64,000 bases of DNA from an uncultured Candidatus Berkelbacteria bacterium (lineage in GTDB: Bacteria > Patescibacteriota > UBA1384 > UBA12157 > JAENIV01), in NCBI GenBank assembly GCA_963698075.1, contig OY969116.1, positions 189,492 to 253,491 of the forward strand, read 5' to 3'. The stretch's first letter is position 1. The number at the start of each line of letters is the position of its first letter. Made by a program: the position numbers and the translations under genes. Under the pieces are notes generated by a model. The model was not told where the DNA came from. It made no database searches and was given only the letters and a program-made list of their open reading frames with translations. Shown piece by piece: positions 4,320-62,612 of the stretch.

Positions 4320-6721
4320 ATGGAAAACTACGACTTTAAATCTATCGAAAATAAGTGGCAAGAACGTTGGGAAAAATCTGGCGCTCATCAGGCAATCGAA
4401 CGTCCAAATGTTCCTAAGTTCTATTGCCTCGATTTCTTCCCCTATCCATCAGGCGAGGGCCTTCATGTCGGTCACTGGCGCGGCTATGTTTTATCTGACA
4501 TTATTTCTCGCTACCAAAAATTAAAGGGCAAAAATATCCTTCATCCAATGGGCTACGATGCCTTTGGTTTACCCGCAGAAAACGCCGCCATCAAAGCCAA
4601 TTCCCATCCTCAAATCTTTACCAATAAGGCCATCAAGCGTTTTCAAAAACAACTACGACAAATTGGCGCGATGTATGATTGGAATCGCGAAATTAATAGC
4701 TCTGATCCCCAATATTATCGCTGGACCCAATCGATATTTTTAAAGTTACACCAAGCCGGGTTTGGCTTATCGTCAAAAAGCGCCGGTTAATTGGTGCCCG
4801 GCCTGCCAGACTGTTTTAGCTAATGAGCAAGTCGTGGCCGGTGAATGTGAACGTTGTGGTGCCAAGACAATCAAAAAAGAACTCACCCAATGGTTTTTTC
4901 GCATCACAAAATATGCCGAAAAACTACTGAACAACTTAGATCAACTCGACTGGCCAGAAAGGACAAAAACTCTCCAGCGCAATTGGATCGGTAAATCTGA
5001 AGGGGCGATGATTAAATTCAAAATTCATGATTCACAATTTAAAGTTGATGTTTTTACCACCCGGCCAGACACTTTATTTGGCGCTACCTTTATGGTTTTG
5101 GCGCCAGAACACCCGATTGTTCAGCAAATCACTACCCCGGAAAATATTGGCGCTGTCCAAGACTATATTGAGAAAACACGTCAGGAATCAGAGCTTTTCC
5201 GCGAAACCGTTGAACGCGAAAAAACCGGAGTTTTTACCGGTGCCTATGCTATCAACCCTGTAAACAACGCCAAGATACCAATCTGGATTGCCGACTATTG
5301 TTTAATTCACTACGGCTCCGGCGCTGTTATGTGTGTCCCTGGTCACGACCGTCGTGATTTCGAATTTGCCAAAAAATTTGCATTACCCGTCGTTCAAGTA
5401 ATATCGCCAGATGGCAAAGTCAACGAGAAACTTCTGCCATATATTGAGTCGGGTTTCAATCTTAATTCGGGACAATACAACGGCCAAAAATCCGAAGACG
5501 CCAAACAGAAAATCACCGAAGATTTAAAAAAGAAGGGTTTGGCGGATTTTGCCACCAAATTCCGACTCCGTGATTGGTTGATTTCCCGGCAGCGTTATTG
5601 GGGGGCGCCGATTCCGATTATTTATTGTCAAAAATGCGGCGAAGTCCCCGTCCCGGAAAAAGAGCTTCCGGTCTTACTTCCAGAGGACGTTGAATTTAAA
5701 CCTAAAGGCGAATCGCCATTAAAACAATCAAAGAAATTTCTTAATACGACTCTGTCCGAAATGTGGCGGTAAAGCTACGCGGGAGACCGACACGATGGAT
5801 ACTTTTGTTGATTCCTCTTGGTATTTTTTACGGTTTACTGATCCAAAAAACAATAAAGAATTTGCCAGCCAAAAAGCCATCAATGTTTGGATGCCGGTTG
5901 ATCTTTATGTTGGCGGAATTGAACACGCCACCATGCACTTACTCTACGCCCGTTTTGTTACTTTGGCGCTTCACGATACTCGGGATTGTAAATTTTGATA
6001 AATTATGGTGAACCTTTCAAAAAACTTTTCAATATCGGTTTGATTTATCTTCACGGCGCCAAAATGTCAAAATCCCGTGGCAACATTGTTACCCCTGATG
6101 AGCTGGTCGCCAAATACGGTTCAGATGCCCTCAGGGGCTACGAAATGTTTGTCGGACCAGCAGATCAAGATAGCGAATGGCAAGTTTCAGGAATCACCGG
6201 TATTTATCGATTCTTAGAGAAAGTCTGGCGGTTTTTCTCACTTCAGGGCACAAAGGAAACATCAATTCAGAATAAACAAATAATCCATCGTCTGATCAGA
6301 AAAATTACTGAAGGATATTGAAAATTTCAGATTCAATACGGCTATTGCCATGCTGATGGAATCTTTTAACGATCTCGATGGAAATATTTCCACCGAGAAC
6401 CTTAAGACATTGGCAATTCTTATCTCACCATTCTTCCCCCACCTTGCCGAGGAAATTTGGGAAAAATTAGGTCAGTCAGAGTCTATTTTTACCGAAAGAT
6501 GGCCCAAGTATGATGCCGAATACCTGAAACTTAAAAAAATCAAAATCGCAATCCAGGTCAATGGTAAATTGCGAGATGTCATCGAGATTGATGTCGGTTT
6601 AAGTCAAAAAGAGGTTGAAGAAAAAGCTTTAACCGCTAAAGTTCAATTAATCATTGGTCCAAGAAAGATAGCCCGACAAATTTACGTTCCTGGAAAAATT
6701 GTCAATTTTGTGCTAGAATAA
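4320..6721 (+). pseudogene. leuS: leucyl-tRNA synthetase leuS, broken by at least 5 single-nucleotide frameshifts
   Basis: Fragments together carry the HVGH-like P-SGEGLHVGHW motif, VNWCPACQT, the CPKCGG zinc knuckle and KMSKS (AKMSKSRGN). Frame changes lie near 4770 (extra T in GGGTTT), 5770 (extra C), about 5990-6000 (two shifts) and 6316 (extra G). Confidence 0.85.
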
Positions 6722-7400: not shown

Positions 7401-7443
7401 GATTACAACCCCGACGAAGATGAATATCTTAAAAAGGAGAAAA

Positions 7444-8166
7444 ATGCCCAAAACAATCAGTCAATTGAAGAATTTGCTCAAAAAATTAGTCTACAATTTT
7501 AAAAATAAAAAACTTCTCAAACAAGTTTTTGTCCATCGTTCGTACCTCAATGAAAATATCGGCTTTGATCTCGATCACAACGAACGACTGGAATTTTTGG
7601 GTGATGCCGTTTTAGAACTCGTCGTTACCGAATATTTATTTGAGAATTTTGACAATCCCGAAGGAGAACTGACTAATTTGCGCTCTGCCCTGGTTAAGGG
7701 GCCGATGCTTTCCGAAGTTGCCAAGGATTTAGGCATGGAAAAAAATCTTTATCTTTCCCGCGGCGAAGCCAAGGCCGAAGGGAAATCGCGACAACTGATT
7801 TTAGCCAATGTTTTTGAGGCCTTGATTGGCGCCATTTACTTAGATCAAGGTTACAAGGCGGCCGTCGAGTTTGTTAAAAAGAACTTGATTTGCCATCTCC
7901 AAAAGATTATTGATGAAAAGCTTTTTCTAGACCCCAAAAGCCATTTACAAGAATTATCCCAAGAACAACTCGACGTTACCCCAGTTTATAAAGTTTTAGA
8001 AGAACACGGGCCGGACCACGCTAAAAGCTTTACTGTTGGCTGTTTCGTAAATGACCGTTTAATCGGCGAAGGCTCTGGCAGTGCAAAGCAAGCGGCTGAA
8101 AGCGCTGCCGCTTCCTCGGCATTAGAACATTGGACTGAAGTTAATTCACAAAACCGTTCGCATTAA
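7444..8166 (+). CDS. rnc: ribonuclease III
   Basis: RNase III signature ERLEFLGDAVLELVVTEYL plus a C-terminal dsRBD; RBS AAAAGGAG before the ATG at 7444; intact. Confidence 0.9.
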   Translation: MPKTISQLKNLLKKLVYNFKNKKLLKQVFVHRSYLNENIGFDLDHNERLEFLGDAVLELVVTEYLFENFDNPEGELTNLRSALVKGPMLSEVAKDLGMEKNLYLSRGEAKAEGKSRQLILANVFEALIGAIYLDQGYKAAVEFVKKNLICHLQKIIDEKLFLDPKSHLQELSQEQLDVTPVYKVLEEHGPDHAKSFTVGCFVNDRLIGEGSGSAKQAAESAAASSALEHWTEVNSQNRSH

Positions 8167-14560: not shown

Positions 14561-15277
14561 TTAAAATTGCTTTAAAAATCTTAAATCTCCGCTATACGAT
14601 AATCGAATATCATCAATATCAAAATATTGCATCATATAGCGGTCAATGCCCATGCCAAACATAATTGCCTGCCATTGGTCGGGATCGATACCCATATTTT
14701 TCAAAACAATCGGATGCCCCATGCCCGAGCCGAGCATTTCCTGCCATTTTTGGATTCCATTTTGATTTTTGATTTTTGATTTTTTATTTATCAATATATC
14801 CATATCCATTCCCGGCTCGACAAAAGGATAAAGATGCGGCCTAACACGGGTTTCAATTTTATCGCCAAAAAGTTCTTTCATATAACCATCGAGTAGTCCG
14901 ATCAAATGACCCATATTCAAATCTTTATCTACGGCAATGCCGTCAATTTGGTAAAAAGTGTGTTCGTGGACTGGGTCGGTGGCTTCATGGCGGAAACAGC
15001 GGCCGGGGATAATTAATCTAAATGGTGGTTTTAAATTATTTTCTTTGACAAATCGGACATCGACGGCCGTCGTATGAGTTCTTAAAATCTTTCCATCCTT
15101 GGTCCAAAAAGTATCTTGAATATCACGTGACGGATGAATCGCGGGAACATTCAGGGCATCAAAATTAAACCACTCAGTTTCAATTTCCGGACCTTCAACA
15201 ATTTGAAAACCTCTTTCGCTAAAATAACCAAGTGAGGCACGCATAAATTGAGTTAAAGGATGTAAATGACCTTTCAT
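14561..15277 (-). CDS. pheS: phenylalanyl-tRNA synthetase alpha subunit (catalytic core only)
   Basis: Class II motifs FRLIIPGRCFRHEATD, HEHTFYQIDG and GMGIDRY. Contains an in-frame (GATTTTT)x3 repeat at 14762-14790. Confidence 0.85.
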   Translation of the reverse strand: MKGHLHPLTQFMRASLGYFSERGFQIVEGPEIETEWFNFDALNVPAIHPSRDIQDTFWTKDGKILRTHTTAVDVRFVKENNLKPPFRLIIPGRCFRHEATDPVHEHTFYQIDGIAVDKDLNMGHLIGLLDGYMKELFGDKIETRVRPHLYPFVEPGMDMDILINKKSKIKNQNGIQKWQEMLGSGMGHPIVLKNMGIDPDQWQAIMFGMGIDRYMMQYFDIDDIRLSYSGDLRFLKQF

Positions 15278-15666
15278 AAGGTTCCTCGCTGATTAATCTT
15301 TTTCGAACGAAAAAATAATTCAAGCATCCCCACCGCCAAAACAAATAATATTGCCACCCACCAGCTTAAAACTCGAATCTGTTGTAAAAAGAGCAATCCC
15401 GTGAAAGCCAAAGCGATGATTAATGATTGCCTGAGCGTCGGCACGAGGTGGGCAAAAATAACTTCGCGGTTAGAAACCCAAACTTTTAAATAAAATCCGA
15501 TCAAACTAAAAAGAGCGGCTAAAAAAAGATAAACGGCCAAGTAAAATAAGATTAACATCCAAAAGGGGATCTGGAAAGGATTGACGTTAAAGATGATAAA
15601 AACCGCGAGCCCGGCCGTTAAAATTAAGGCGGCGTAGAGACTAAAAAGGTAAAGTCTTAAAATCAT
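15274..15666 (-). CDS. hypothetical membrane protein
   Basis: About 4 TM segments. Confidence 0.5.
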   Translation of the reverse strand: MILRLYLFSLYAALILTAGLAVFIIFNVNPFQIPFWMLILFYLAVYLFLAALFSLIGFYLKVWVSNREVIFAHLVPTLRQSLIIALAFTGLLFLQQIRVLSWWVAILFVLAVGMLELFFRSKKINQRGTL

Positions 15667-31090: not shown

Positions 31091-31276
31091 TTAATAGGTT
31101 TCGTATTGACGCATCAGCAACTGCGCCTGAATTTGTCTCATCGTTTCAATTACGTTTTTCGTAACCGGAAAAGGAATAGAGACAATGGCTTTTGGCAACT
31201 GGTACGATTTAATAATTTTCGTACTGTCGCATCAATAACTGGGCTTGGATCTGACGCATTGTCTCTATTAAAATTC
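31091..31276 (-). repeat. two extra diverged copies of the secY 3' terminus (last about 21 codons plus stop), tandem to the native secY end at 31321-31386
   Basis: Minus-strand translations are IETMRQIQAQLLMRQYENY* (31209-31271) and IETMRQIQAQLLMRQYETY* (31091-31153). The native end is IIETMRQIQAQLLMRQYETY*. Period is about 112-118 nt. Nucleotide identity is about 75-85 percent, with differences almost all synonymous. Confidence 0.8.
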
Positions 31277-31320
31277 TCCTTGAATTTAATTGAAACTTTT
31301 CCTTTTACCATTCTTAAGGT

Positions 31321-32664
31321 TTAATAAGTCTCATACTGGCGCATCAGAAGCTGCGCCTGGATTTGCCTCATCGTTTCAATTATAACAGAAACCATAATTA
31401 AAACACCAGTGCCACCAATAACCAAAGTGTTAACCTTCGTAATCGCCTGAACAATAAACGGCAATACCGCAATTACTCCCAAGAAAACGGCCCCGGTGAG
31501 ATTTACCCGAGAAATAATCCGTGAAAGATACCCTGCCGTCTCCTGGCCCGGCCTGACCCCAGGGATAAAGCCGCCTTGTTTTTGTAAGTTTTCGGCAATC
31601 TGGGTCGGTTTGAGGATAATCCCGGTATAGAAAAAGGTAAAAAGGATTACCAAAATAAAGTAGGCAATCCCATAAAACCAGTTATTGGTAAAAAGGTTGG
31701 CCACCCAGGTAGCGGCCTGGGCAAGCCACTCCGAACGCGCTTGAGAGAGGAATTTGGCCCCGACGCCCGGGAAAAGCATAATTGACATCGCAAAAATGAT
31801 TGGGATAACCCCAGCCGTATTGACCCGAATCGGTAAATGGGTGTCCACCCCGCCGTATGCCTTCAATCCACGAATGCGCCTGGCGTAGGAAACGGGAATT
31901 TGCCGCCGGCCTTCATTGACGATGACGATTAAAATCACCACCGCCAGGGCGATTAAACCAAAGATGATTAGACCAATAATTTTCGTCGTATCTAAAACCG
32001 CGAGGGTATTGCGAACCTGGGCCGGCAGGCCCGCCACAATCCCTAACGTAATAATTAAAGAAACGCCGTTACCGATCCCATTTTCGGAAATGAGCTCGCC
32101 GATCCACATGAGAAGTATCGTTCCAGCGGTAATCGAGATAAGCATTACCGCCAACTGTATCGGCGTCCAAGAAATGACAATTTGCTGATTGCGAAGCAAA
32201 ACCAACATGCTGTAAGACTGAATCAACGCCAATGGCACGGTTAGGATCCTCGTCCAATAATTAATCTTTTGCTGGCCGCTCTCCCCTTCTTTTTGGAGCT
32301 CCTCTAAGGAAGGAATGACCATCGTCAAGAGCTGGACAATAATTGAGGAAGTAATGTAAGGACCAACGCCCATCATAATAATCGAAAAGTTCTCCATTGC
32401 CCCGCCGGAAAACATGTTCAAAAGCCCGAAAATTTGGTTCCGGCCAAAAAAATCTCTCAGTTGAACAATATCGACGCCGGGTAAAGGAATGTGGGCCAAA
32501 ACCCTGGCGATCAGTAACAGGGCGACGGCATATAAAACTCGCCGTCTTAAATCCGGCAAAGTAAAAATCTGTTTTAAAGTCTCCCAAAAACGCATAAAAA
32601 CAACCTTTCTTTTTAGGTCTATTTCTATCTTATCACTTGCTCCGAAATAGTCAATAAATCCCAA
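31321..32664 (-). CDS. secY: preprotein translocase SecY
   Basis: 447 aa, 10 TM, in the canonical position after rplO in the spc operon. Confidence 0.9.
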   Translation of the reverse strand: MGFIDYFGASDKIEIDLKRKVVFMRFWETLKQIFTLPDLRRRVLYAVALLLIARVLAHIPLPGVDIVQLRDFFGRNQIFGLLNMFSGGAMENFSIIMMGVGPYITSSIIVQLLTMVIPSLEELQKEGESGQQKINYWTRILTVPLALIQSYSMLVLLRNQQIVISWTPIQLAVMLISITAGTILLMWIGELISENGIGNGVSLIITLGIVAGLPAQVRNTLAVLDTTKIIGLIIFGLIALAVVILIVIVNEGRRQIPVSYARRIRGLKAYGGVDTHLPIRVNTAGVIPIIFAMSIMLFPGVGAKFLSQARSEWLAQAATWVANLFTNNWFYGIAYFILVILFTFFYTGIILKPTQIAENLQKQGGFIPGVRPGQETAGYLSRIISRVNLTGAVFLGVIAVLPFIVQAITKVNTLVIGGTGVLIMVSVIIETMRQIQAQLLMRQYETY

Positions 32665-43072: not shown

Positions 43073-43429
43073 TTATTTCTTTTCTTCACCCGGCCGGGTT
43101 GGGGGCGTCTCTTGAGCTTGCTGAACCGATTGGGCTACTTTCTGGGCTTCAGCTTGTTCCTCTTCGCGGGCGATGCGACCACCATGTTTTATAAATTTTC
43201 TGGTCGGGGCGAATTCGCCCAATTTATGACCAACCATATCTTCAACTATCAATACCGGGATGTGTTCTCGACCATTATGAATTCCAATTCTAAAGCCAAC
43301 CATTTCTGGCGAAATCACCGAATTCCTTGCCCAGGTTTTAACCACGGTTTGATCGCCTTTTTTTATCTTGGCCAATTTCTTGATTAAATTTTCATCCAAA
43401 TACGGACCTTTTTTAAGTGAACGTGACAT
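43073..43429 (-). CDS. rpsS: ribosomal protein S19
   Basis: [18 protein letters not shown]...[13 protein letters not shown]. Confidence 0.9.
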
Positions 43430-43560
43430 TTTATTCCTTATTTATGTGGCCGCAGGGGATGTGTCTTCGCGAAGTGCCGGCGTCCCGAATCGCCGAAGGC
43501 GAATTCGAGACAGGGCTGGAGTGGGTGGCCGAGAGCGAAGGCACGACCCGAGGCCATTCA
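43430..43560. repeat. GC-rich intergenic element, copy B (homolog of 46322-46483)
   Basis: Shares blocks GGGGATGTG, GCGAAGTGCCGG and GGGTGGCCGAGAGCGAAGGCACGACCCGAGGCCA with the tuf-rpsJ intergenic region. About 65 percent GC in an AT-rich operon. Confidence 0.6.
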
Positions 43561-44391
43561 TTATTTCTTTCTCCTCTGGACAATCATTTTATCAGAATAT
43601 TTGTGTTTTTTCCGGGTACGAACGCCTGAAGCGTGTTTGCCCCATGGCGTCTTGGGATATTTTAAGCCAATCGGATTAACTCCTTCGCCCCCGCCGTGCG
43701 GATGGGCGTCAGGATGCATCGCTTTGCCGCGAACTGACGGCCGAATTCCCATATGACGCTTTCTGCCAGCTTTACCTATCCGCTGAGCCGAATGACTAAT
43801 ATTAGAAACTTGACCGATGCTTGCCCAGCCATCTTTCGAAAGTCTCCGAACCTCGCCTGAAGGCATTTTGATATGAACCCAACTCCCTTCTTTGGCGACG
43901 ATTGAAGCCGAAGCGCCAGCTGAACGTACCAGCTTGCCACCTTGACCAGGTTTGACTTCCAGATCAAAAATCTCAATGCCATTCGGGATATTGGCCATCT
44001 TTATACGATTACCGGCTTTAATTTCACCCTTTTCTTGGGCGACAAGGTGTTCATCAACTTTTACCCCTTCCCAAGCAATCAAATACTTTTTTTCTTTATC
44101 TTCAAACTCCACCAAAACCACAAAGGCGGTGCGGCCGGGATCATATTCGATTTCTTTTACCTTGGCCTTGACTTCTTTCTTGGTCTCGAGTGAACCCAAA
44201 ATCCGATACTTACGCTTGCTACCACCACCTTGGTGTCTGATACTAATCTGACCAGTGTTATCTCGACCAGCCTGTCGGGTGATTTTTAAAACCAAACCTT
44301 TTTCAGGTTTTCTGCGGGTTAAAACCGAGAAATCAACGACTGACATTTTTCGGCGTCCCTGGGTTGTGGGTCTGTATTGTTTTAACATCAC
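43561..44391 (-). CDS. rplB: ribosomal protein L2
   Basis: 276 aa; ...GGGEGVNPIGLKYPKTPWGK.... Confidence 0.9.
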   Translation of the reverse strand: MMLKQYRPTTQGRRKMSVVDFSVLTRRKPEKGLVLKITRQAGRDNTGQISIRHQGGGSKRKYRILGSLETKKEVKAKVKEIEYDPGRTAFVVLVEFEDKEKKYLIAWEGVKVDEHLVAQEKGEIKAGNRIKMANIPNGIEIFDLEVKPGQGGKLVRSAGASASIVAKEGSWVHIKMPSGEVRRLSKDGWASIGQVSNISHSAQRIGKAGRKRHMGIRPSVRGKAMHPDAHPHGGGEGVNPIGLKYPKTPWGKHASGVRTRKKHKYSDKMIVQRRKK

Positions 44392-44666
44392 TTTTCCTCA
44401 AAGCCCGGAATTTTCTGACCTTTTTTTAAAGTGACAATTGCTTTCTTAAAAGGCTTGATTTTACTCCGATAACGACCTCTGGTTAATTTTTCTTCGCCGG
44501 GATTATGGATCATATTCACCTTGATGACTTTAACCTTGTACATCTCTCCGATTGCTTGGGCGACCTGGGCTTTGTTGGCCAGAGGGTGAATTTTAAAAAC
44601 ATATTTGCTCTGCTGGCTCATGCCGATCGCTTTTTCCGAAATTTTCGGTTCAATTAAGACTTGCAT
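44388..44666 (-). CDS. rplW: ribosomal protein L23
   Basis: Order between rplD and rplB. Confidence 0.85.
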   Translation of the reverse strand: MQVLIEPKISEKAIGMSQQSKYVFKIHPLANKAQVAQAIGEMYKVKVIKVNMIHNPGEEKLTRGRYRSKIKPFKKAIVTLKKGQKIPGFEEK

Positions 44667-45280
44667 TTTTCCTCGATTGCTTCTAAACTTTCTTTGTCAG
44701 TCACCAGATAATCGTAATTTAAGATATCAATTAAGGTAAGACCGGAAACAGGAACCGTCTTAACATAAGGCAGGTTCGCGCTCGCCAGCTCTAAATTGAC
44801 ATTCGTTTTCGAAATGGCAATGAGAATACTGCCTTCCTGGATTGGTAATTTCTCCAAGAAACTTTGAACCTCGCGAGTTTTGGGCTCTTTTAATTCCAAC
44901 TTCGAAATCACAATGAGACGGTTATTTTTGATTCTGTCTGACAATGCCATTCTTAAGGCCGACTTGGCCATCTTTTGAGAAATTCTTTTGGAAAAATTAC
45001 GATTATTTCGCGGACCAAAAACCACCCCGCCGCCTACCCAAAGCGGAGAGCGATTCGAACCAGCGCGAGCGTTACCGGTGCCTTTTTGGCGAAAAGGCTT
45101 GCGACCGCCGCCAGAAACCTCGCTTCTATCTTTAGTATGAGCGATGGCGCGGCGGCGATTAGCTAACTGTCCTTGAACTACTTGGGCAAGAAGTTTTGGG
45201 TTTTCAGCCACTTTAAAAATCTTATCCTCAATTTCAATTGTTTGCCCTGATTTACTAGCGGGATATATCTTAAGCTTCAT
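44654..45280 (-). CDS. rplD: ribosomal protein L4
   Basis: 208 aa; order. Confidence 0.9.
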
Positions 45281-45872
45281 TTTGACTCCAAAGTTTTACC
45301 CAAGAATTTTTTGCTCCCGGCACTGCGCCTTTGATAAAGATTAATGATTTTTCGGGGTCTATTTTGATAATTTCGAGTTTTTTGATGGTCTTTTTTTGAT
45401 TGCCTAAATGACCGGCCATGCGGCGGCCTTTAATCACCCGTTGGGGAAACATTGATCCGATTGAGCCAGGTTGGCGATAATTATTGGATCCATGAGTCTT
45501 GGGACCTAGTGTAAATCCGTGGCGCTTGACGGTCCCAGCAAAACCCTTACCTTTGGATACGCCCGAAACATTGATTTTTTCTCCCTCCGCAAACAAATCA
45601 ACCTTGATTTGGGTACCAACCTGATGATTAGCAATCGTCTCTACCTCAAAGATTTTCTCCGGTCTCAATTTTAAACTCTCAAATTGACCCTTTTCGGATT
45701 TATTTAGTCGTTTTTTTTGACCAGCCGCTATTTGAATCCGGTTCTCCCTTTCGCCAGCCGTCACCCGGGTGACAGTATTGGTTTTTGCCTCAACTAAAGT
45801 AATCGGGATCTCGCGACCCTGTTTGTCAAATATTCTTGTCATTCCTAATTTTTTACCTAATATTGCACGCAT
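45270..45872 (-). CDS. rplC: ribosomal protein L3
   Basis: 200 aa; GMTRIFD motif. Confidence 0.9.
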   Translation of the reverse strand: MRAILGKKLGMTRIFDKQGREIPITLVEAKTNTVTRVTAGERENRIQIAAGQKKRLNKSEKGQFESLKLRPEKIFEVETIANHQVGTQIKVDLFAEGEKINVSGVSKGKGFAGTVKRHGFTLGPKTHGSNNYRQPGSIGSMFPQRVIKGRRMAGHLGNQKKTIKKLEIIKIDPEKSLIFIKGAVPGAKNSWVKLWSQNEA

Positions 45873-45958
45873 AAATACTCTTTATCCGGAAACGCCCCAC
45901 ACTCTAGCGAGACATTATCCTGACTACTTTCTGAACTAAATTATTACTTTTTACTTAC

Positions 45959-46321
45959 TTAGGTTTTAATCTCGATATCAACTCCGGCTGGCAAATCAAG
46001 ACTCATGAGTGAATCAATCGTTTTTGCCGAAGGATCATAAACATCAATTAATCTTTTATGAATCCGCATCTCGAACTGTTCCCGGGCGTCTTTGTGAACA
46101 AAGGTAGACTTTAGAACCGTCACCTTATTCTTTTCCGTTGGCAAAGGGATCGGGCCGGTGACAACCGCACCAGTTCTTTCGGCGGTTTCAATAATTTTGC
46201 GCGCCGATTTATCGATAATTCGATGATCATAGGCCTTAAGCCGAATGCGAATTTTCTGTTTGACTTCCGGTACCTCTTTTTTGGATACTGTGGATGTAGT
46301 TTTTGAAGTACTCTTTGGCAT
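45959..46321 (-). CDS. rpsJ: ribosomal protein S10 (N-terminally extended)
   Basis: [30 protein letters not shown]. Confidence 0.9.
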
Positions 46322-46483
46322 GTGAACGTTTTACGCCGAGGGGATGTGCCTGAGCGAAATGCCGGTCTCGATTACGCTCCGTCTTTGGCGAGTCACGCAT
46401 GAGCCAAAACGGAAGTAATCGAGTAGGTTGGCTAGGGTGGCTGAAAGCGAATGGCACGACCCGAGGCGATAATTTATCTAAAT
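46322..46483. repeat. GC-rich intergenic element, copy A (S10-leader position between tuf and rpsJ)
   Basis: Homologous to 43430-43560 (see copy B). Confidence 0.6.
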
Positions 46484-47671
46484 TTACTTTACTATCTTTG
46501 TTACTACTCCTGCTCCAACGGTTTTACCCCCTTCACGAATGGCAAACCGCATTCCTTCTTCCATGGCCACTGGCTGGAGCAATTTGACTTTGAATTTAAT
46601 CGTGTCCCCTGGCATGACCATTTCCGTGTCCGCTGGCAGTTCAACTTCGCCGGTAACGTCAGTTGTCCGAATATAAAATTGGGGCTTATAACCTTTAAAG
46701 AACGGCGTGTGACGTCCACCTTCCTCTTTGGTTAAGACGTAAACTTCTGATTCGAATTCGGTGTGTGGGGTAATCGACCCAGGTTTGGCTAAAACTTGGC
46801 CGCGCTCAACATCTTCTCGCTCGACACCACGAAGTAAGGCGCCGATGTTATCGCCGGCAATTCCTTCATCAAGCTGCTTTTTAAACATCTCGACGCCGGT
46901 AACAACCACTTTTTTAGTCGGTTTGAGACCCACAATTTCTACTTCTTCATTAACTTTAACTTTACCGCGTTCGATTCGACCGGTAGCCACCGTGCCCCGT
47001 CCTTTAATCGAGAAAACGTCTTCGACCGCCATCAAGAAGGGTTTTTCCACATCCCGTTTTGGTTCAGGGACGAATTCATCAAGAGCCTTGAGTAATTCTT
47101 CAATTGATTTTTCCCCTTCGGCGTCGCCTTCAAGGGCTTTGAGAGCCGAGCCTTTTATAATCGGGGTCTCATCGCCGGGAAATTCATATTTTTTCAAGAG
47201 ATCGCGAACTTCCATTTCAACTAATTCCAAAAGTTCTTTATCGGTCACTTGATCAACCTTATTTAGATAAACCACAATTGACGGCACTCCCACCTGACGG
47301 GCTAACAGGATATGCTCGCGAGTTTGCGGCATTGGACCGTCAGCAGCCGAGACCACCAAAATCGCTCCATCCATCTGCGCCGCTCCGGTGATCATATTTT
47401 TGACATAGTCAGCGTGACCCGGGCAGTCAACGTGAGCATAATGACGTTTATCGGTTTCGTACTCAACATGACAAGTAGCAATCGTGATCCCGCGTTCTTT
47501 TTCTTCTGGAGCATTGTCAATTTGATCAACTGTCCGCGGCTCGGCCAAGCCTTTTTTGGACTGAATTTTCAAAATCGCCGCGGTTAACGTTGTTTTGCCG
47601 TGGTCAACATGACCAATGGTTCCCACATTAACATGGGGTTTCTTGCGTTCAAATTTTTTGGTCTCTGCCAT
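46484..47671 (-). CDS. tuf: elongation factor Tu
   Basis: [18 protein letters not shown] and NKVD G-domain motifs; 395 aa, intact. Confidence 0.95.
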
Positions 47672-49509: not shown

Positions 49510-49574
49510 CCTGAAGGGAAAATTGGTGGCGCGATATGACCGCCAGCAGTTTCTCCTTCGGGAGCTTACCAGGC
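49510..49574 (+). ncRNA. conserved structured leader element E1 (candidate cis-regulatory RNA)
   Basis: CCUGAAGGGAAAAUUGGUGG-[hairpin UGGCG..CGCCA]-CAGUUUCUCCUUCGGGAG, shared with E2. The outer helix CUGAAGG/CCUUCGG competes with a local CUCC-UUCG-GGAG tetraloop hairpin. Confidence 0.45.
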
Positions 49575-49630
49575 AGGCTTTACCTAGTAAGGCACGCTTG
49601 GAAGAGAAGCACAAGAGGAGGCAGGCTTCC

Positions 49631-50170
49631 ATGTCGGAGGCAAGCTTCGGTGAGCAGTCAAGTTGGGAAGATGTCGGTCGTCTTCTGACACAACTGGGGG
49701 CGTTCTTCAGGAAGGCCGCGCGTAGACTCGATTCAGAGTTCCTCCAAGCCTTCACTGACTTCACTCCCTTTAGGGAGGCAGTCGCTGCGACCTATCGGAA
49801 ATGGGCACTACGACTGGTGCAGGAAGCCTTCGGTGTCTGGGTCCTGGAGAGCAGGTGGGCCCAACTCAGGGTATACGACCAACGCAAAACCCCCACTCAT
49901 GTCATGGAGGCCATGAGGGCGCTCGAGAGGATGGTCAAAGACGGCCGCGAGGGGCCCAAGCTTCACGTCCAAGATCATCATTTCACAACTCGAAGCTGCA
50001 GCACCAACATCGTCCAGGTGCTCTTCGCGAATAATCGCGTGCTCTATGTCAGATTCGGAGAGCGTGGAGACGTCTACTGGGATATCTACGGCGCAGCCGT
50101 CTGCCCCATCACCGGTGATGGACCATGTGAGCTCGAAGACATGGTCGCGGCCGTCAAACGCCTCTTCTGA
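49631..50170 (+). CDS. GC-rich hypothetical protein (179 aa)
   Basis: ATG after RBS AAGAGGAGG; no recognisable motif. Confidence 0.5.
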   Translation: MSEASFGEQSSWEDVGRLLTQLGAFFRKAARRLDSEFLQAFTDFTPFREAVAATYRKWALRLVQEAFGVWVLESRWAQLRVYDQRKTPTHVMEAMRALERMVKDGREGPKLHVQDHHFTTRSCSTNIVQVLFANNRVLYVRFGERGDVYWDIYGAAVCPITGDGPCELEDMVAAVKRLF

Positions 50171-50186
50171 CCCTATCTCGAACCCA

Positions 50187-50220
50187 AGACCGCCGGAGCG
50201 GTTAATTGCGCCGGCGGTCT
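50187..50220 (+). terminator. GC hairpin after gene 49631..50170
   Basis: AGACCGCCGG-(14 nt)-CCGGCGGTCT, a 10-bp stem. Confidence 0.45.
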
Positions 50221-50252
50221 CTCATATCTAGAGAGCTTTCTATACCATGGAT

Positions 50253-50281
50253 TGACAAAGGAACAGCTTTATGCTACACTC
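50253..50281 (+). promoter_or_regulatory. sigma70-like promoter (TTGACA-17-TACACT)
   Basis: Hexamers upstream of E2 and the gene at 50438. Confidence 0.4.
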
Positions 50282-50327
50282 AAGGAGTTTTGAAGCTGAA
50301 GAATAGTCCGCCAGTCGGCGGATTTCC

Positions 50328-50391
50328 CCTGAAGGGAAAATTGGTGGTGATATCATTATTGGATTATCGCCGGCAGTTTCTCCTTCGGGAG
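50328..50391 (+). ncRNA. conserved structured leader element E2 (paralog of E1)
   Basis: Same outer helix and UUCG hairpin as E1. The inner hairpin differs in sequence but preserves pairing (GGUGAUA...UAUCGCC versus UGGCG...CGCCA), a compensatory change. Confidence 0.45.
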
Positions 50392-50437
50392 ACGGGTGTA
50401 TCCCGGAAACAACACCGCTTAACAATTGAGGGATAAC

Positions 50438-51163: not shown

Positions 51164-53263
51164 TTATTTTTGTTTCCCCTCAATAATCTTTTGCGCTATA
51201 TGACGAGGCACTTCGGCGTAGTGGGAAAATTCCATAGTGAAGCTTGCCCGGCCTTGGGACATACTCCGTAAAGAAGTGGCGTAGCCAAACATTTCCGCCA
51301 AAGGCACTTCGCCGTCAATCACCTTCATTTTCGCTCGATCCGACATTTCTTTAATATGAGTTCTCTTAGAATTTAAATCCCCCAAAACATCACCCATAAA
51401 ATCTTCTGGCACGACGACTTCAATCCGCATAATTGGCTCCAATAAAACCGGATTGGCTTTTTTAACTCCGGCCTGCAAAGCAAGTGAGCCGGCAATTTGG
51501 AAGGCAATTTCCGAAGAATCAACTTCGTGAAAAGAGCCGTCGTACAAAGTTGTTGACATATCCACCAACGGATAGCCGGCAATCACGCCTCGGGTCATTG
51601 CTTCTTTAATCCCCTTTTCCACTGCCGGAATAAATTCTTTAGGAATTGTGCCGCCGACAATTTTATCGATAAATTCAAAACCTTTGCCGCGTTCCATTGG
51701 GTTTAATTCTAACCAAACATGGCCGTATTGACCGCGGCCGCCTGTTTGACGGATATATTTACCTTCAGCTTTAATACCGAGCGCTTTGATCGTTTCTTTG
51801 TAAGCAACTTGCGGGGCGCCGACATTGGCCTCAACTTTAAATTCCCGTTTCATCCGGTCAACAATAATTTCCAAATGTAGCTCGCCCATGCCGGAAATAA
51901 TTGTCTGACCGGTTTCCGGATCGCCTTTGACCCGAAAGGTCGGATCTTCTTGAGCTAAGCGATTTAAAGCAATGCCCATTTTTTCCTGATCCTGCTTGGT
52001 TTTTGGTTCAATCGCCACACCAATTACGGGCTCTGGGAAAGTAATTGCCTCCAAAATTATTGGCGATTTTTCGTCACATAAAGTATCGCCGGTAGTAGTA
52101 TCTTTTAGGCCCACAGCCGCGGCAATTTCGCCGGCAAAAACTTCGCTGACTTCTTCGCGATGTTGAGCATGCATTCTGACAATTCGGCCGATGCGTTCTT
52201 TTTTGTCTTTAGAAGAATTAAGGACATATGTGCCGGCTTTTAACATCCCAGAATAAACTCTAAAAAAAGTTAAAGTCCCAACAAATGGATCAGCAGCGAC
52301 TTTAAAAGCCAAAGCGGCGAATGGTTCGGCGTCATCGGGCGATCTTTCGAGTTCTTCTTCGGTTCTTGGCTTCCAGCCCTTGACTGGGGGAATATCGAGC
52401 GGTGAAGGCAAATATTCAACCACTGCATCCAAAACCTGCTGCACGCCTTTGTTTTTTAGGGCTGACCCACAGAAAACTGGTACTAATTTATTGGCAATGG
52501 TGGCATTTCGAGAACTTTTTTTAATTCTTCATAGGTCGGTTTTTGACCTTCTAAATATTTATGGAGTAACTCATCATCTTGCTCGGCGATTTTTTCGACT
52601 AAAATTTGATGGAGTTTTTCCGCTTTTTCTTTGAAGCTCCGCCGGGATTTCGAGTTCTTTAACATCTTGACCTTTATCGCCATGGAATTCATAAGCTTTC
52701 ATTTTCAAAACATCGATCACTTGCGAAAATTTTTCTTCATGGGCGTTGGGGAATTGGATGGCAACGGCGTTGTCAGTTAAACGTTCTTTAATTGAATCAA
52801 ATGACTTATTAAAATCTGCGCCCATGCGGTCAAGTTTATTAATAAAACAAATCCGTGGCACCCCGAATTTATCCGCCTGATGCCAAACCGTTTCCGATTG
52901 CGGCTCAACCCCGGCAACGCCGTCAAAAACCACGATCGCGCCATCAAGAACGCGCAAAGAGCGCTGGACTTCGGCGGTAAAATCAATGTGACCGGGAGTA
53001 TCGATAATATTAAAGCGAATTTTTTCTCGAGGATTATCACGGCTGGCCCAAAAACAAGTGGTGGCGGCTGAAGTAATCGTAATTCCCCGCTCGCGCTCCT
53101 GGGCCATCCAGTCCATCACGGCCGCCCCTTCGTGAACTTCGCCGATTTTATAGGTTTTGCCGGTATAAAACAGAACCCGCTCGGTCATCGTCGTCTTCCC
53201 AGCGTCGATATGGGCAATGATGCCAAAATTACGGGTTTTTTCAAGTGAATATTCTCGTGCCAT
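51164..53263 (-). pseudogene. fusA: elongation factor G fusA, two frameshifts (near 52650 and 52455)
   Basis: N-terminal [17 protein letters not shown] and NKLDR. Middle [29 protein letters not shown]. Then [36 protein letters not shown] continues to the C-terminus in other frames. A one-nucleotide deletion (CC to C) lies at about 52455. Confidence 0.85.
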
Positions 53264-53404
53264 AATCTCCGATTTAAATTAAAAATTTCCCCTTTGTCTC
53301 TCTTATTTTATCAAAGAAATTGGATGAAGTCAACTAAAATACCACCATATTTCAGGTGGCATTTTAGCTTTTGGTTAACCAAAAATCTCTTTTTGCCAGA
53401 AAAT

Positions 53405-53689
53405 CTACTGCTTGGCCGCGGCTCCCGGAATGGTTCCTTTTTTGCGGCCGATGATCAAATAGAGAATCGGCCCGATCCAAGCAATCAAGATGATAAGAAC
53501 CAGCCAGAGAATCTTGTCATTTGGGTTGGTAAACTGGCGGCGAATGCAGTCTATCAGGGCCCAAAGCCATAAGATGAACCCCACGCCCGCAAAAATCACC
53601 CAGAAAATTACCCAGCCGATGACCAAAGTTCCGGCCACAGCAGTGGCAGCCGCCGCTGCCGCGGGATCATAACTTGCAGAATAGTCCAT
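53405..53689 (-). CDS. PLD-nuclease N-terminal domain (PLDc_N)-like small membrane protein
   Basis: LWALIDCIRRQFTNPNDKILWLVLIILIAWIGPILYLIIGRK matches the PLDc_N motif. Confidence 0.55.
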   Translation of the reverse strand: MDYSASYDPAAAAAATAVAGTLVIGWVIFWVIFAGVGFILWLWALIDCIRRQFTNPNDKILWLVLIILIAWIGPILYLIIGRKKGTIPGAAAKQ

Positions 53690-53765
53690 TAAACCTCCTT
53701 TTTTCTCGACCTAATTACAGTTTCGCATAAGATAAAAAATTTGTCAAATCTAATGTCTTTTAAGC

Positions 53766-53794
53766 TTGACTTTTACCATAAAATATGGTATAAT
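53766..53794 (+). promoter_or_regulatory. consensus sigma70 promoter with extended -10 (TTGACT-17-TGGTATAAT)
   Basis: Near-duplicate of the promoter at 49298. Followed by a GC-rich 5' leader of about 110 nt. Confidence 0.5.
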
Positions 53795-53905
53795 CCTTAT
53801 GTCAGAGCATCGCTCGGGTATAACCTGTAGCCTGCTCGGCTAACCCACTCACCGATCAATGGCCCTATGGGGACCGGAGACGGAAAGAAGAAAGGGAGAA
53901 GTGAG

Positions 53906-54379
53906 ATGTCTAGCATTCGAGTCGTCGGACCCGACGGACGTCCTGTTTCTGAAGAGCAGTACCCCATGGATGGACCAGCCCCAAAGTTGGAAAATGGGCA
54001 GAGTTTCTCGCTCTTCGAGATCCTCTCGAACCCAATCTTCATCAATGGAACGCCACTGGAACACATCCACGGAACGGCCCGAGCAACGCTGTATCCCCGG
54101 AACACTGCCGTCTGTAAGGATCGAGTGCGCTATTTCGAGCTCAGCATCCGGTCGCGGAGCTGGGACGATATGATCGCGCTCTTCCACGAAGTCCGTAGGC
54201 TCGTCTACAGCTATGAGCCGCTAATACACAAGCCGGCGCCGCCCGCACCGCCGAAGCCGGAGGATCCGTCCTTCATGGGCGGCATCAAGTGGCTGATCCG
54301 CGGAATCTGGTATGATGTCTGCCGCGTCTGGCTCTACTGCGGCCACATCTTGGACCGAGCCTACGAAGACGGCGTGTAG
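53906..54379 (+). CDS. GC-rich hypothetical protein (157 aa)
   Basis: MSSIRVVGPDGRPV... after RBS AAGGGAG. Confidence 0.5.
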   Translation: MSSIRVVGPDGRPVSEEQYPMDGPAPKLENGQSFSLFEILSNPIFINGTPLEHIHGTARATLYPRNTAVCKDRVRYFELSIRSRSWDDMIALFHEVRRLVYSYEPLIHKPAPPAPPKPEDPSFMGGIKWLIRGIWYDVCRVWLYCGHILDRAYEDGV

Positions 54380-54403
54380 AGTAGTCAACCGACCGCTTCA
54401 CTG

Positions 54404-54427
54404 GGGCGCCCTCTTCCGAGGGCGCCC
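54404..54427 (+). terminator. GC hairpin terminator after 53906..54379
   Basis: GGGCGCCCTC-TTCC-GAGGGCGCCC, a 10-bp stem with T-rich sequence downstream. Confidence 0.55.
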
Positions 54428-54518
54428 TTCTCATATCTGAAATACTTTTTTTATTACCAGAAAAGATTCCGTCAGGAATCTTTCTTCATAATCTTATGAG
54501 ATTTTCCAATTTTAAAAA

Positions 54519-54989
54519 TCAAAATCTTGCATAGTGCGCAAAAGCCTTATTGGCTTCGGCCATTTTATGCATATTTTCTTTTTGTTTGATTGAAACGCCA
54601 GTATTGCCGTAAGCCGCTAAAATTTCGTCCGCTAAGAGTTTCTCAAAATTGGCACCTTGACCTTTGCGGGCAGTCTTAATCATCCAGCGCATCGCCAAGG
54701 TTTGGCCGCGATCGCCACCAACCTCAACCGGTACTTGATAAGTCGCCCCACCGATGCGGCGGGGTTTGACTTCCAATAAGGGAGTGGCGTTCTTTAAGGC
54801 CGCTTCAAAAATCTCGAGCGGTTCTTTACTGGTTTTATCTTTTAAAATGTCAAAAGAGCCATAAACAAGCTTTCGGGCGGTTTCTTTCTGCCCCCTCAGC
54901 ATCACTTTATTGATAAACTTGGCCACTGTCACCGATTGGTATTTGGGATCCGGGTTCAATTTTCTTTTTTTGGCTCTTTTACCTCTCAT
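54519..54989 (-). CDS. rpsG: ribosomal protein S7
   Basis: 156 aa; order rpsL-rpsG. Confidence 0.9.
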   Translation of the reverse strand: MRGKRAKKRKLNPDPKYQSVTVAKFINKVMLRGQKETARKLVYGSFDILKDKTSKEPLEIFEAALKNATPLLEVKPRRIGGATYQVPVEVGGDRGQTLAMRWMIKTARKGQGANFEKLLADEILAAYGNTGVSIKQKENMHKMAEANKAFAHYARF

Positions 54990-54991
54990 CT

Positions 54992-55474
54992 TTAACCTTC
55001 CGTAGTTACCGGCTGCTCAGGAGAAGCAGCCGGAGCGGCGACTTTTCTTTGAACACCCGCCGCGCCCTTTTTCGTCCCATACTTAGAACGACCTTGAAGC
55101 CGACCTTCAACCCCAGCGGTATCGAATTTTCCTCTAACAATATGATAACGAACTCCAGGAAGGTCCTTGACTCTACCGCCGCGAATCAAAACCACAGCGT
55201 GTTCTTGCAAATTATGGCCTTCTCCAGGAATATAGGCAGTCACTTCTTGGCCCGAGGTTAGTCTCACTCGAGCAATTTTTCTTAGAGCGGAATTAGGTTT
55301 TTTGGGCGTCACCGTTGTCACTTTCACGCAGACGCCACGTAAAAACGGCCGACCTTTGACAAACTCAACTGGTCGGTTTTTTAAAAAATTAAAACCACGC
55401 CGCAGTGCCGGCGTTTTTGTCCGCTTAATCTTTGACTTTCTTCCTTTTTTTAAAAGTTGTTGAACAGTAGGCAT
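54992..55474 (-). CDS. rpsL: ribosomal protein S12 (C-terminally extended)
   Basis: [11 protein letters not shown]...KKPNSALRK...; classic S12. Confidence 0.9.
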
Positions 55475-55489
55475 AAATTTAGTTGTTAG

Positions 55490-59298
<3,809 letters not shown>

Positions 59299-59370
59299 TA
59301 TTCTCCTTCATCAATCGGTTTTGATTTTAATTCGGGGGCAGGAACCGCTAATTCGGTGACCTCAATATCC

Positions 59371-62612
<3,242 letters not shown>

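Follow-up and report, generated by a model that had tools for sequence, protein, structure and literature searches.

GC-rich mobile palindromes are familiar from compact genomes that are otherwise richer in AT: the mitochondria of yeasts and green algae carry GC clusters and palindromic repeats of this kind, coding regions included. REP/REPIN elements can stabilise the mRNA upstream of them. The genomes of CPR bacteria are close to 1 Mb in size and are regarded as poor in mobile DNA. Here we describe a structured repeat in the S10 operon of one such bacterium, which we consider very probably to be a non-autonomous selfish palindromic repeat that is dispersed in the Patescibacteria (CPR) and behaves like Rickettsia palindromic elements (RPEs) and MITEs. 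For RPEs we rely on the work of Ogata et al., 2000, as far as it is summarised in two reviews (PMC10969869; PMC3184786), and the reviews of RPEs and MITEs describe the same behaviour as we find here (PMC10969869; PMC3184786).

The window, by which we mean the whole stretch of DNA that was analysed, covers 64 kb of a 929-kb source genome and leaves 93% of that genome outside our view. Its S10 operon lies on the minus strand, with gene identities taken from Pfam searches on identical or related contigs. From the gene coordinates, a spacer of 162 nt (46322-46483) separates tuf (EF-Tu, minus strand, 46484-47671, read from 47671 to 46484, with a promoter-like site upstream at 47737-47709) from rpsJ (S10, minus strand, 45959-46321), and a spacer of 131 nt (43430-43560) separates rplB (L2, minus strand, 43561-44391) from rpsS (S19, minus strand, 43073-43429), just as the original prediction had it. 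The sequence blocks on which that prediction was built are indeed found in both spacers, alike in order and orientation; they were quoted as read on the plus strand, which is antisense to the operon. When the tuf-rpsJ spacer (spacer A) is compared with the whole window by blastn, the sole match is the rplB-rpsS spacer (spacer B), in two collinear segments of 36 nt at 88.9% identity (E 3.6e-7) and 32 nt at 84.4% (E 0.002). Exact occurrences of the 14-mer CCTCGGGTCGTGCC in the window are confined to the same two spacers, and a covariance model run over the 64 kb with filters off finds copies A and B only, the next-best match having an E of 0.17. The observation itself is confirmed. The base composition is less extreme than had been claimed: the arms, at 65% GC, and copy B, at 68%, fit the stated figure of about 65%, but copy A overall has 59%, the full spacers come to 52% (tuf-rpsJ) and 60% (rplB-rpsS), and the operon, described as AT-rich, is only mildly so at 44% GC.

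Each of the two spacers holds one copy of the element, a GC-rich imperfect palindrome of 96-152 nt in which the arms, of 30 nt each, are conserved and the distal hairpin varies. Copy A (46335-46467, 133 nt, plus strand; 171.8 bits with covariance model R1) is of a long-hairpin subtype. Its 5' arm GCCGAGGGGATGTGCCTGAGCGAAATGCCGG (46335-46365), which contains the 5' halves of helices P1-P4 and the GA and GAAAU loops, is followed on the plus strand by the variable distal hairpin (46366-46423), the conserved junction motif TAGGTTGGCTAGGG (46424-46437) and the 3' arm TGGCTGAAAGCGAATGGCACGACCCGAGGC (46438-46467). Copy B (43449-43554, 106 nt, plus strand; 129.1 bits with the same model) is of a short-hairpin subtype and consists, again on the plus strand, of the 5' arm GCCGCAGGGGATGTGTCTTCGCGAAGTGCCGG (43449-43480), the variable distal hairpin (43481-43511), a diverged junction segment AGGGCTGGAGTGGG (43512-43525) and the 3' arm TGGCCGAGAGCGAAGGCACGACCCGAGGC (43526-43554). 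The G-rich strand is the plus strand in both cases, antisense to the tuf-rpsJ transcript at copy A and to the rplB-rpsS transcript at copy B, and an AAGGA Shine-Dalgarno sequence is kept between copy B and the ATG of rpsS. Parts of each copy recur elsewhere: a 26-nt core of the copy A 5' arm is found exactly in L011-L014, the junction motif TAGGTTGGCTAGGG is present with at most two substitutions in 11 of the 12 aligned copies, and the translation of the copy A distal hairpin, RSRLRSVFGESRMSQNGS, reappears in the TsaD protein (P0146) of the same genome. Close copies of the B type occur in L014, L021 and P0241; the distal hairpin of copy B is homologous to that of L014, with a compensatory swap from A-U to U-A.

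Folded, the element is a rod of four helices, P1 (GCC/GGC), P2 (GGG/CCC), P3 (approximately GUGCC/GGCAC) and P4 (GCCG/YGGC), with conserved purine-rich internal loops between them (GA/GA, GAU/GA and GAAAU/UGAAA). At the tip of the rod stands a junction with the conserved motif UAGGUUGGCUAGGG, and then a hairpin that varies in length and sequence. The pairing of GTGCC with GGCAC that had been anticipated is present and is helix P3. The ends GCC-GA-GGG and CCC-GA-GGC pair, and the whole arms form 20 bp, with conserved mismatches; the terminal inverted repeat is both short and imperfect. Predicted fold energies across element copies range from -39 to -60 kcal/mol, those of a long stable stem-loop, with values of -56.2 (G strand) and -48.4 kcal/mol (C strand) for copy A and -50.0 and -44.1 kcal/mol for copy B; both window spacers reach z of -3.0 to -4.1 against shuffled sequence. 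All seven copies tested are more stable on the G strand, by 3-19 kcal/mol, and across these copies the G strand has 26 G-U pairs and the C strand 11. In an alignment of 12 copies, 95.4% of cells pair, compared with 31-40% when the partners are slid. Compensatory double changes are seen at 13 of the 20 basal pairs, none of 500 shuffles reaches the observed values, and the distal hairpins always keep their pairing while their sequences differ. Inspected by eye, the GA loops also suggested a hammerhead, a k-turn or a C/D box, readings that were dropped because copy B has Watson-Crick pairs in place of one such 'motif'.

Neither site carries the element in the nearest relatives, whose L3 proteins are 84%, 79% and 77% identical to that of the source genome. 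In L002-L007 both S10-operon sites are without it: the tuf-rpsJ spacers measure 10-21 nt, except in L007, where 78 nt of AT-rich sequence are unrelated, the rplB-rpsS spacers measure 1-22 nt, and the covariance model gives no match on these relatives' S10-operon loci. The copy A site is empty in L002, L003 and L004 and the copy B site in L002, L004 and L005. Because the spacers of the relatives are so short, we take copies A and B to be lineage-specific insertions.

Copies of the element are found at many other loci. The 26-nt 5'-arm pattern matches four JGI metagenome contigs, all with a full two-armed copy (53-109 bits with the covariance model), and these lie between a ZIP-like ORF and ybaB, between a Na+/H+-pyrophosphatase gene and a small ORF, between a cupin-like ORF and a desulfoferrodoxin-domain gene, and within tsaD. 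Apart from copies A and B, six copies outside tsaD, on Patescibacteria/CPR contigs, lie between unrelated genes or within a short hypothetical ORF. Altogether there are 13 DNA copies in 10 distinct contigs, with further copies known only as protein inserts, and three known copies in the source genome, two in the window and one in tsaD. In its length, below about 400 bp, its lack of a transposase ORF and its multiple dispersed copies, the element is like a MITE. All five intergenic copies between co-directional genes have one and the same orientation; the G strand is antisense between genes and sense in genes. Collections other than these yielded little. In the GTDB representative genomes, among which the source genome is not included, the 3'-arm pattern has two chance matches only; these fall in coding DNA of Myxococcales and Planctomycetota. 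Spacer A has no BLAST match in collections of phages and plasmids, the two arm patterns gave one chance match and then none against viral contigs, and a literature search on palindromic or MITE elements of CPR/Patescibacteria found nothing relevant.

One of the loci is tsaD, which encodes the universal t6A enzyme and contains at least 13 copies of the element, translated in frame. DNA copies are confirmed in tsaD of L016, L018, L019 and L020, and element-derived peptides (AEGMCPSEMPV...AESEGSTRG and variants) occur in 9 of 120 TsaD cluster representatives. The L012 tsaD holds two copies, of 96 and 117 nt, both multiples of 3 and free of stop codons, and even with them the ORF reaches 331 bits as a TsaD equivalog. 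Genomes differ in whether tsaD sites 1-3 are filled or empty, and positions 405-435 of L016 hold a degraded or 'solo' remnant of the element; tsaD is so far the one gene with in-gene copies. In the source genome tsaD lies outside the window, and its product P0146 is encoded on the 929,420-bp contig that also encodes the window's L3; within the window the P0146 insert matches copy A alone (67% identity, E 1e-11). When P0146 is modelled with AlphaFold, the TsaD core is confident (pTM 0.82) and the insert makes a low-confidence excursion from it, with pLDDT below 50 at residues 96-113. Sequence and structure of the element are very strongly conserved between hosts whose TsaD proteins are only about 58% identical. 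With copies in unrelated CPR contexts and in tsaD of the same genome, and with orthologous sites empty in the nearest relatives, there is support for the suggestion that a small element of the REP or MITE kind has spread.

How else might two such spacers have come to resemble each other? Frameshifted essential genes in the window suggest local assembly errors, so one could suspect chance or an assembly artefact, an explanation with next to no probability left. Chance is contradicted by the blastn and covariance-model statistics; an independent Logan assembly of run ERR10755944 has both element halves identical base for base, so the element is not an assembly artefact; and at least 13 homologous copies in other samples refute either version. 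The original prediction had offered another explanation, that of a shared autoregulatory motif, with copy A at the position of the L4-binding S10 leader. In this reading the element would be an r-protein leader duplicated within the operon, and r-protein binding would repress translation or terminate transcription. Copy A does take up the place immediately before rpsJ at which the S10 leader of E. coli is found, and both copies are structured (z = -3 to -4) and precede r-protein genes. However, the position of copy A and the presence of structure are all that the element shares with the E. coli leader and its L4 autoregulation; it has no sequence or structure match to that leader, relatives do not share it, and it turns up at unrelated loci. 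At gathering scores, an Rfam cmscan of the window reports a single tRNA and nothing else, and neither spacer matches an r-protein leader family or anything else relevant at E<=10. The nearest relatives have spacers of 1-22 nt at both sites and nothing like such a leader before rpsJ. The element also occurs by ybaB, the pyrophosphatase gene with its small ORF and the desulfoferrodoxin-domain gene as well as inside tsaD, and in the operon the better-folding strand, which has the G-U pairs and the GA loops, runs antisense. A promoter and terminator scan found neither associated with copy A or copy B. Another conserved, covarying motif, upstream of rplC, is the better leader candidate. We regard the leader reading as very improbable and close to refuted. 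Rather more can be said for a structured RNA module that is useful to the host and would be kept, wherever it has inserted, for its tuning of mRNA decay or of expression; a CPR-specific protein or RNase III might bind or process it, or it might give rise to a small RNA from the G-rich strand. Strong conservation across hosts and strict orientation could indeed also indicate a host-useful function: covariation is strong, 12 copies from divergent hosts show almost no variation in the unpaired purine-rich loops or in the junction motif UAGGUUGGCUAGGG, the G strand is the better folded and richer in G-U pairs, the orientation of the intergenic copies is uniform, and RNase III is encoded in the window (7420-8166). 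Yet the host genes have nothing in common, the same sites in close relatives are without copies, and the well-folding strand of the intergenic copies is the non-transcribed one, with no associated promoter or terminator. The tsaD copies, moreover, are translated and include degraded or 'solo' remnants, the pattern expected of decaying selfish DNA, and conservation of structure is equally expected if a mobilising enzyme recognises the hairpin. A host-useful module seems to us quite unlikely.

If the element is selfish DNA, its mode of movement has to be considered. At seven inspected junctions no target-site duplication is seen, and a filled and empty pair of tsaD sites shares only GCCGA, again with no target-site duplication; the intergenic empty sites are too diverged for this check to be decisive. 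A CCGAGG direct repeat at both ends was rejected as a target-site duplication because it is accounted for by the GA/GA mismatch inside GC stems. Pfam searches of roughly 60 window ORFs found no transposase, integrase or HUH enzyme. Given the missing target-site duplication and the strand asymmetry, we consider a single-strand (HUH-type) mechanism, or another that departs from convention, just as plausible as the classical DDE-type mechanism of MITEs. In one specific form of this idea, an HUH enzyme (IS200/IS605 TnpA or RAYT-like) that reads the folded G-rich strand would move the element as single-stranded DNA, so that it would resemble REPINs and palindrome-associated elements and not a cut-and-paste DDE MITE. 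Besides the target sites, the strand-asymmetric folding with G-T/G-U pairs on one strand only, the uniform orientation of intergenic copies relative to neighbouring genes and the conserved hairpin mismatches, which fit structure-specific recognition, speak for it; a Y1/HUH transposase is lacking among the roughly 60 window ORFs searched, there are no GTAG motifs of the REP type, and neither arm is self-complementary or a palindrome by itself. Furthermore, in the r-protein operon, which presumably lies on the leading strand, the G strand is the one opposite the sense strand, the reverse of the IS608 rule. On balance we think this specific mechanism rather unlikely. A broader conjecture, which we put forward tentatively and with some doubt, is that no RPE-like system would have been described before this one except for the classical cases: CPR-wide GC-rich palindromes with three conserved purine-rich loops and a conserved junction motif would be moved by an unconventional, structure-recognising mechanism without target duplication (through ssDNA or RNA), would be exchanged horizontally among distant Patescibacteria and would favour the surface loops of TsaD and reshape them, and the orientation rule would reflect a real coupling to transcription, translation or replication.

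The reading that we prefer, a non-autonomous selfish repeat, would then work as follows. The element would have inserted at tuf-rpsJ and rplB-rpsS after the split from the nearest sequenced relatives, and a third copy lies in frame in tsaD of the same genome; an enzyme acting in trans would presumably mobilise the element, for which we know of no cognate IS. Within the S10 operon it would merely be co-transcribed as a stable hairpin: the mRNA would bear the C-rich strand, whose fold of -44 to -48 kcal/mol precedes a ribosome-binding region that has stayed intact. For the operon the element probably has no effect, or none beyond the processing or stabilisation of mRNA at the hairpin, and it is probably not involved in L4 feedback. 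Against this reading stand the low copy number, with two copies in 64 kb and three known in the genome, and the missing target-site duplication. Nor have we seen any within-species presence/absence polymorphism, so ongoing mobility is something we infer and do not show. A structured repeat found both in core operons and in an essential universal enzyme suggests that selfish DNA shapes operon architecture and protein surfaces in CPR bacteria. It also carries a warning for annotation, as GC-rich structured spacers in CPR ribosomal operons should not be named 'leaders'. The covariance model seed now allows the family to be mapped, and the mobilising enzyme can then be searched for by co-occurrence.

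Among known systems, the mitochondrial GC clusters belong to organelle genomes and have unrelated sequences, so that their likeness to the element is by analogy only. The RAYT-mobilised REP/REPIN elements are, like it, GC-rich extragenic palindromes in operons that have two conserved arms, a less conserved centre and a long hairpin and leave no target duplication; unlike them, our element has arms that are not short palindromes and no GTAG motif, it also lies inside coding sequence, and no RAYT gene is seen among the roughly 60 window ORFs searched. MITEs such as ERIC, Correia/CREE, Nezha, Chunjie and the Coxiella QMITE are likewise small and non-autonomous with a long stable stem-loop, and they too occupy transcribed intergenic operon spacers, show filled and empty sites and occasionally fuse to ORFs (PMC3184786), whereas the present element has no detected target-site duplication and a short terminal inverted repeat with conserved GA mismatches. 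From the RPEs it differs in its host, which belongs to the CPR/Patescibacteria and not to the Alphaproteobacteria, in being GC-rich in a genome of 43% GC and in having its in-gene copies only in tsaD; the comparison is one of analogy, made from descriptions, and not of membership. As far as the summaries of RPEs go, the element nevertheless matches them in being a palindromic repeat of about 100-150 nt without a transposase in a small, reduced genome, and in lying both between genes and in frame within unrelated or essential protein genes, where the added peptide is tolerated by the fold.

Two spacers of the S10 operon, which runs on the minus strand of the window, hold copies of one GC-rich element. 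Copy A (46335-46467, 133 nt) lies between tuf (46484-47671), upstream, and rpsJ (45959-46321), and copy B (43449-43554, 106 nt) lies between rplB (43561-44391), upstream, and rpsS (43073-43429), with rplC, rplD and rplW between rpsJ and rplB (all on the minus strand; identities from Pfam annotations of identical or near-identical contigs). The G-rich strand of both copies is the + strand, antisense to the operon. The spacers have the predicted lengths of 162 and 131 nt, and alignment upholds the claim that they share blocks in equal order and orientation: by blastn, spacer B is the sole match of spacer A in the whole window, in two collinear stretches (36 nt, 88.9%, E 3.6e-7; 32 nt, 84.4%, E 0.002), and a 14-mer of the 3' block occurs exactly only in these two spacers. 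A search of the 64 kb with the covariance model of the element, its filters switched off, turns up no third copy. The GC content of about 65% holds for the element's conserved arms (65%) and copy B (68%) but not for copy A (59%), in an operon of 44% GC. An AAGGA ribosome-binding sequence is retained downstream of copy B. Both elements are base-for-base identical in an independent Logan assembly (run ERR10755944). The Logan contig ends fall inside the distal hairpins of both copies: one contig covers window 46413 to 43479, another begins at 43508, and their overlap at copy B is exactly 30 nt, a k-1 junction. Such a junction suggests a branch in the assembly graph, and with it more copies or variants of the same hairpin in the sample.

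Both copies are imperfect palindromes. Read on the + strand, the 5' half consists of helix P1 (GCC), loop GA, P2 (GGG), loop GAU and P3 (GUGCC plus 2-3 further pairs), followed by loop GAAAU, P4 (GCCG), a variable hairpin and the motif UAGGUUGGCUAGGG, after which the complementary halves follow, their loops being UGAAA, GA and GA; the proposed GTGCC/GGCAC pairing is helix P3. Both strands of both spacers fold far below shuffled controls (z -3.0 to -4.1), and the G-rich strand is the more stable in each of seven copies, by 3-19 kcal/mol, with 26 G-U pairs vs 11 on the other strand. In a 12-copy alignment, whose pairing statistics carry the caveat that it was guided by and fitted to the model, 95.4% of cells are in standard pairs (31-40% with slid partners), 13 of 20 pairs have changed on both sides, and 0 of 500 shuffles reach the observed values. 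P3 occurs as GUGCC/GGCAC, GUGUC/GGCAC, AUACC/GGUAU, ACUCU/AGAGU, GUCCUC/GAGGAU and GCCCC/GGGGU, and the distal hairpins differ wholly in sequence between subtypes with pairing always kept, including an A-U to U-A swap between copy B and metagenome contig L014. Judged by this covariation, the structure is maintained across copies.

What is such an element doing in a ribosomal protein operon? Copy A had been placed as a possible L4-binding S10 leader. Against Rfam 15, no family is found at gathering scores and none at E<=10 with either spacer. The host belongs to the Patescibacteria (CPR); its L3 protein shares 63% identity with a Berkelbacteria-annotated L3, and its contig measures 929,420 bp. 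In the three closest relatives recovered (L3 identity 84%, 79% and 77%), tuf and rpsJ are separated by 21, 10 and 78 nt (the 78-nt gap is AT-rich and unrelated), rplB and rpsS by 21, 1 and 22 nt, and the covariance model has no match in their S10-operon loci. We therefore reject an S10/L4-type leader for either copy; given the tight junctions and the negative model, copies A and B are, on the available loci, lineage-specific insertions into otherwise tight junctions. Separately, the rpsJ-rplC spacer (45873-45958) carries a motif CAGGAUAAUG-[hairpin]-GCGUUUCCGGAU at 45884-45922 (minus strand) that is kept in the window and three related loci (L002, L004, L005). RNAalifold gives its hairpin 14 pairs, 6 with compensatory changes (four sequences only), and it has no Rfam match. 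As a candidate for a true r-protein leader, here upstream of rplC/rplD, this motif ranks above copies A and B.

The alternative in the original prediction, a small REP- or MITE-like element that has spread, is supported by copies in unrelated contexts on other CPR contigs. A 26-nt degenerate 5'-arm pattern matched four JGI metagenome contigs, all of which hold complete two-armed copies (53-109 bits) in contexts unrelated to ribosomal proteins. The L014 copy separates a ZIP-like membrane ORF from ybaB, the L013 copy follows a membrane pyrophosphatase, the L011 copy has a cupin-like ORF on one side and a desulfoferrodoxin-domain gene on the other, and L012 has two copies inside a 434-aa TsaD. 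An exhaustive peptide search with the copy B translation adds a B-type copy between convergent genes on a hypothetical-ORF contig (L021) and a further TsaD with an insert (P0241). A scan of the GTDB representative genomes with a 3'-arm pattern gave chance matches only, and we observed no within-species presence/absence polymorphism.

The two elements in the L012 tsaD (96 and 117 nt) share one frame with 0 stops. One TsaD loop thereby gains AEGMCPSEMPVTRTKFESRLARAAESEGSTRG and another a 39-residue variant, yet at 331 bits the ORF clears the TsaD equivalog cut-off of 296. Searching with this protein returns homologues of 330-466 aa, and element-derived peptides occur in 9 of the 120 listed TsaD representatives, in each case read from the G-rich strand; DNA copies are confirmed in L016, L018, L019 and L020. 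L016 has two full copies and a 31-nt 'solo' remnant of the two ends (405-435, GGTCGAGGGGAC|GACCCGAGACC, P1 + P2 only), whose translation at TsaD site 1, occupied in L012 by a full copy, is VEGTTRD; it was left either by excision, as a footprint, or by a deletion inside the element that spans the palindrome. Among the nine, P0146 is encoded on the window's own 929,420-bp contig, outside the window, which has no tsaD gene. Its insert AEGISLSERRSRLRSVFGESRMSQNGSRRVGRLGSPNANGVSRG matches only copy A in the window (46339-46473, 67% identity, E 1e-11), so that together with copies A and B the source genome, by sequence, carries three or more copies, belonging to two or more subtypes. AlphaFold models P0146 with a confident TsaD core (pTM 0.82) and the insert as a partly helical excursion whose distal residues 96-113 have pLDDT <50. 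Unrelated repeated peptides, often twice per protein, occupy the same 3-4 loops of other TsaD proteins (P0136, P0148, P0169, P0122, P0123, P0138), among them SSEVQSESQTPQ...SSLNDERA, KKYGS(N/D)EVMKYK and STEVQSNSSLVIG...NELPITN; because the loops are shared, several in-frame repeat families seem to target tsaD in CPR. Within a few kb of their element-bearing tsaD, contigs L019 (8549-8920) and L020 (546-923) encode 23S_rRNA_IVP/bAvd-domain proteins that resemble the accessory proteins of diversity-generating retroelements.

Orientation follows a rule. Every in-gene copy found sits in tsaD and has the G-rich strand as sense, two from unbiased searches among them, and in 5 of 5 intergenic copies between co-directional genes the G-rich strand runs antisense to the neighbouring genes. 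Stop codons alone are insufficient to explain the in-gene bias, since most short copies leave two of three antisense frames open. The element is also much better conserved than its hosts (host TsaD ~58% identical), which speaks for horizontal transfer or strong constraint.

Within the operon, a strong sigma-70-like match upstream of tuf (47737-47709, minus strand, TTGACA-17-TAAAAT, 11/12 consensus positions) and the separate placement of fusA-rpsG-rpsL (51164-55474) make tuf appear to head the S10 transcription unit. The element would be co-transcribed from this promoter-like site and is predicted to fold in the transcript as a hairpin of -44 to -48 kcal/mol. We found no promoter or terminator associated with copies A and B, and any effect would go no further than 3' protection or RNase III-type processing; the window's RNase III gene (7420-8166, +, Ribonucleas_3_3 and dsrm domains) encodes the obvious candidate cutter. 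Elsewhere in the window, long essential genes lie in pieces in different frames (leuS 4320-6721, fusA 51164-53263, rpoC/rpoB 55490-62612, pheS 14561-15666), fusA with two compensating frameshifts ~45 codons apart at A5 and A7 runs (around 52445-52640), and the 10-kb S10-spc operon is unbroken despite 41 homopolymer runs >=6; the breaks come either from indel errors in the local assembly or from something stranger. A 29-nt direct repeat (90% identity, 49536-49564 and 50363-50391) lies in neighbouring GC-rich ORFs (49523-50170, no Pfam match, and 50206-50436), and a 62-nt unit occurs three times at ~115-nt spacing (31091-31382).

We commit to the reading that the element is a selfish palindromic repeat, presumably mobilised in trans by some enzyme, with a structure-recognising single-strand mechanism as a serious sub-hypothesis. 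Nothing on such elements in CPR came up in the literature available for searching. Our commitment follows from properties shared more generally with MITEs, namely a small, non-autonomous, palindromic nature (PMC10969869, PMC3184786), and from an incomplete membership of that class, since the element has no visible target-site duplication and only a short terminal repeat, and the ~60 window ORFs scanned contain no transposase-like Pfam domain. The closest resemblance is to the Rickettsia palindromic elements, which are likewise sited both between genes and in frame inside genes (PMC10969869, PMC3184786).
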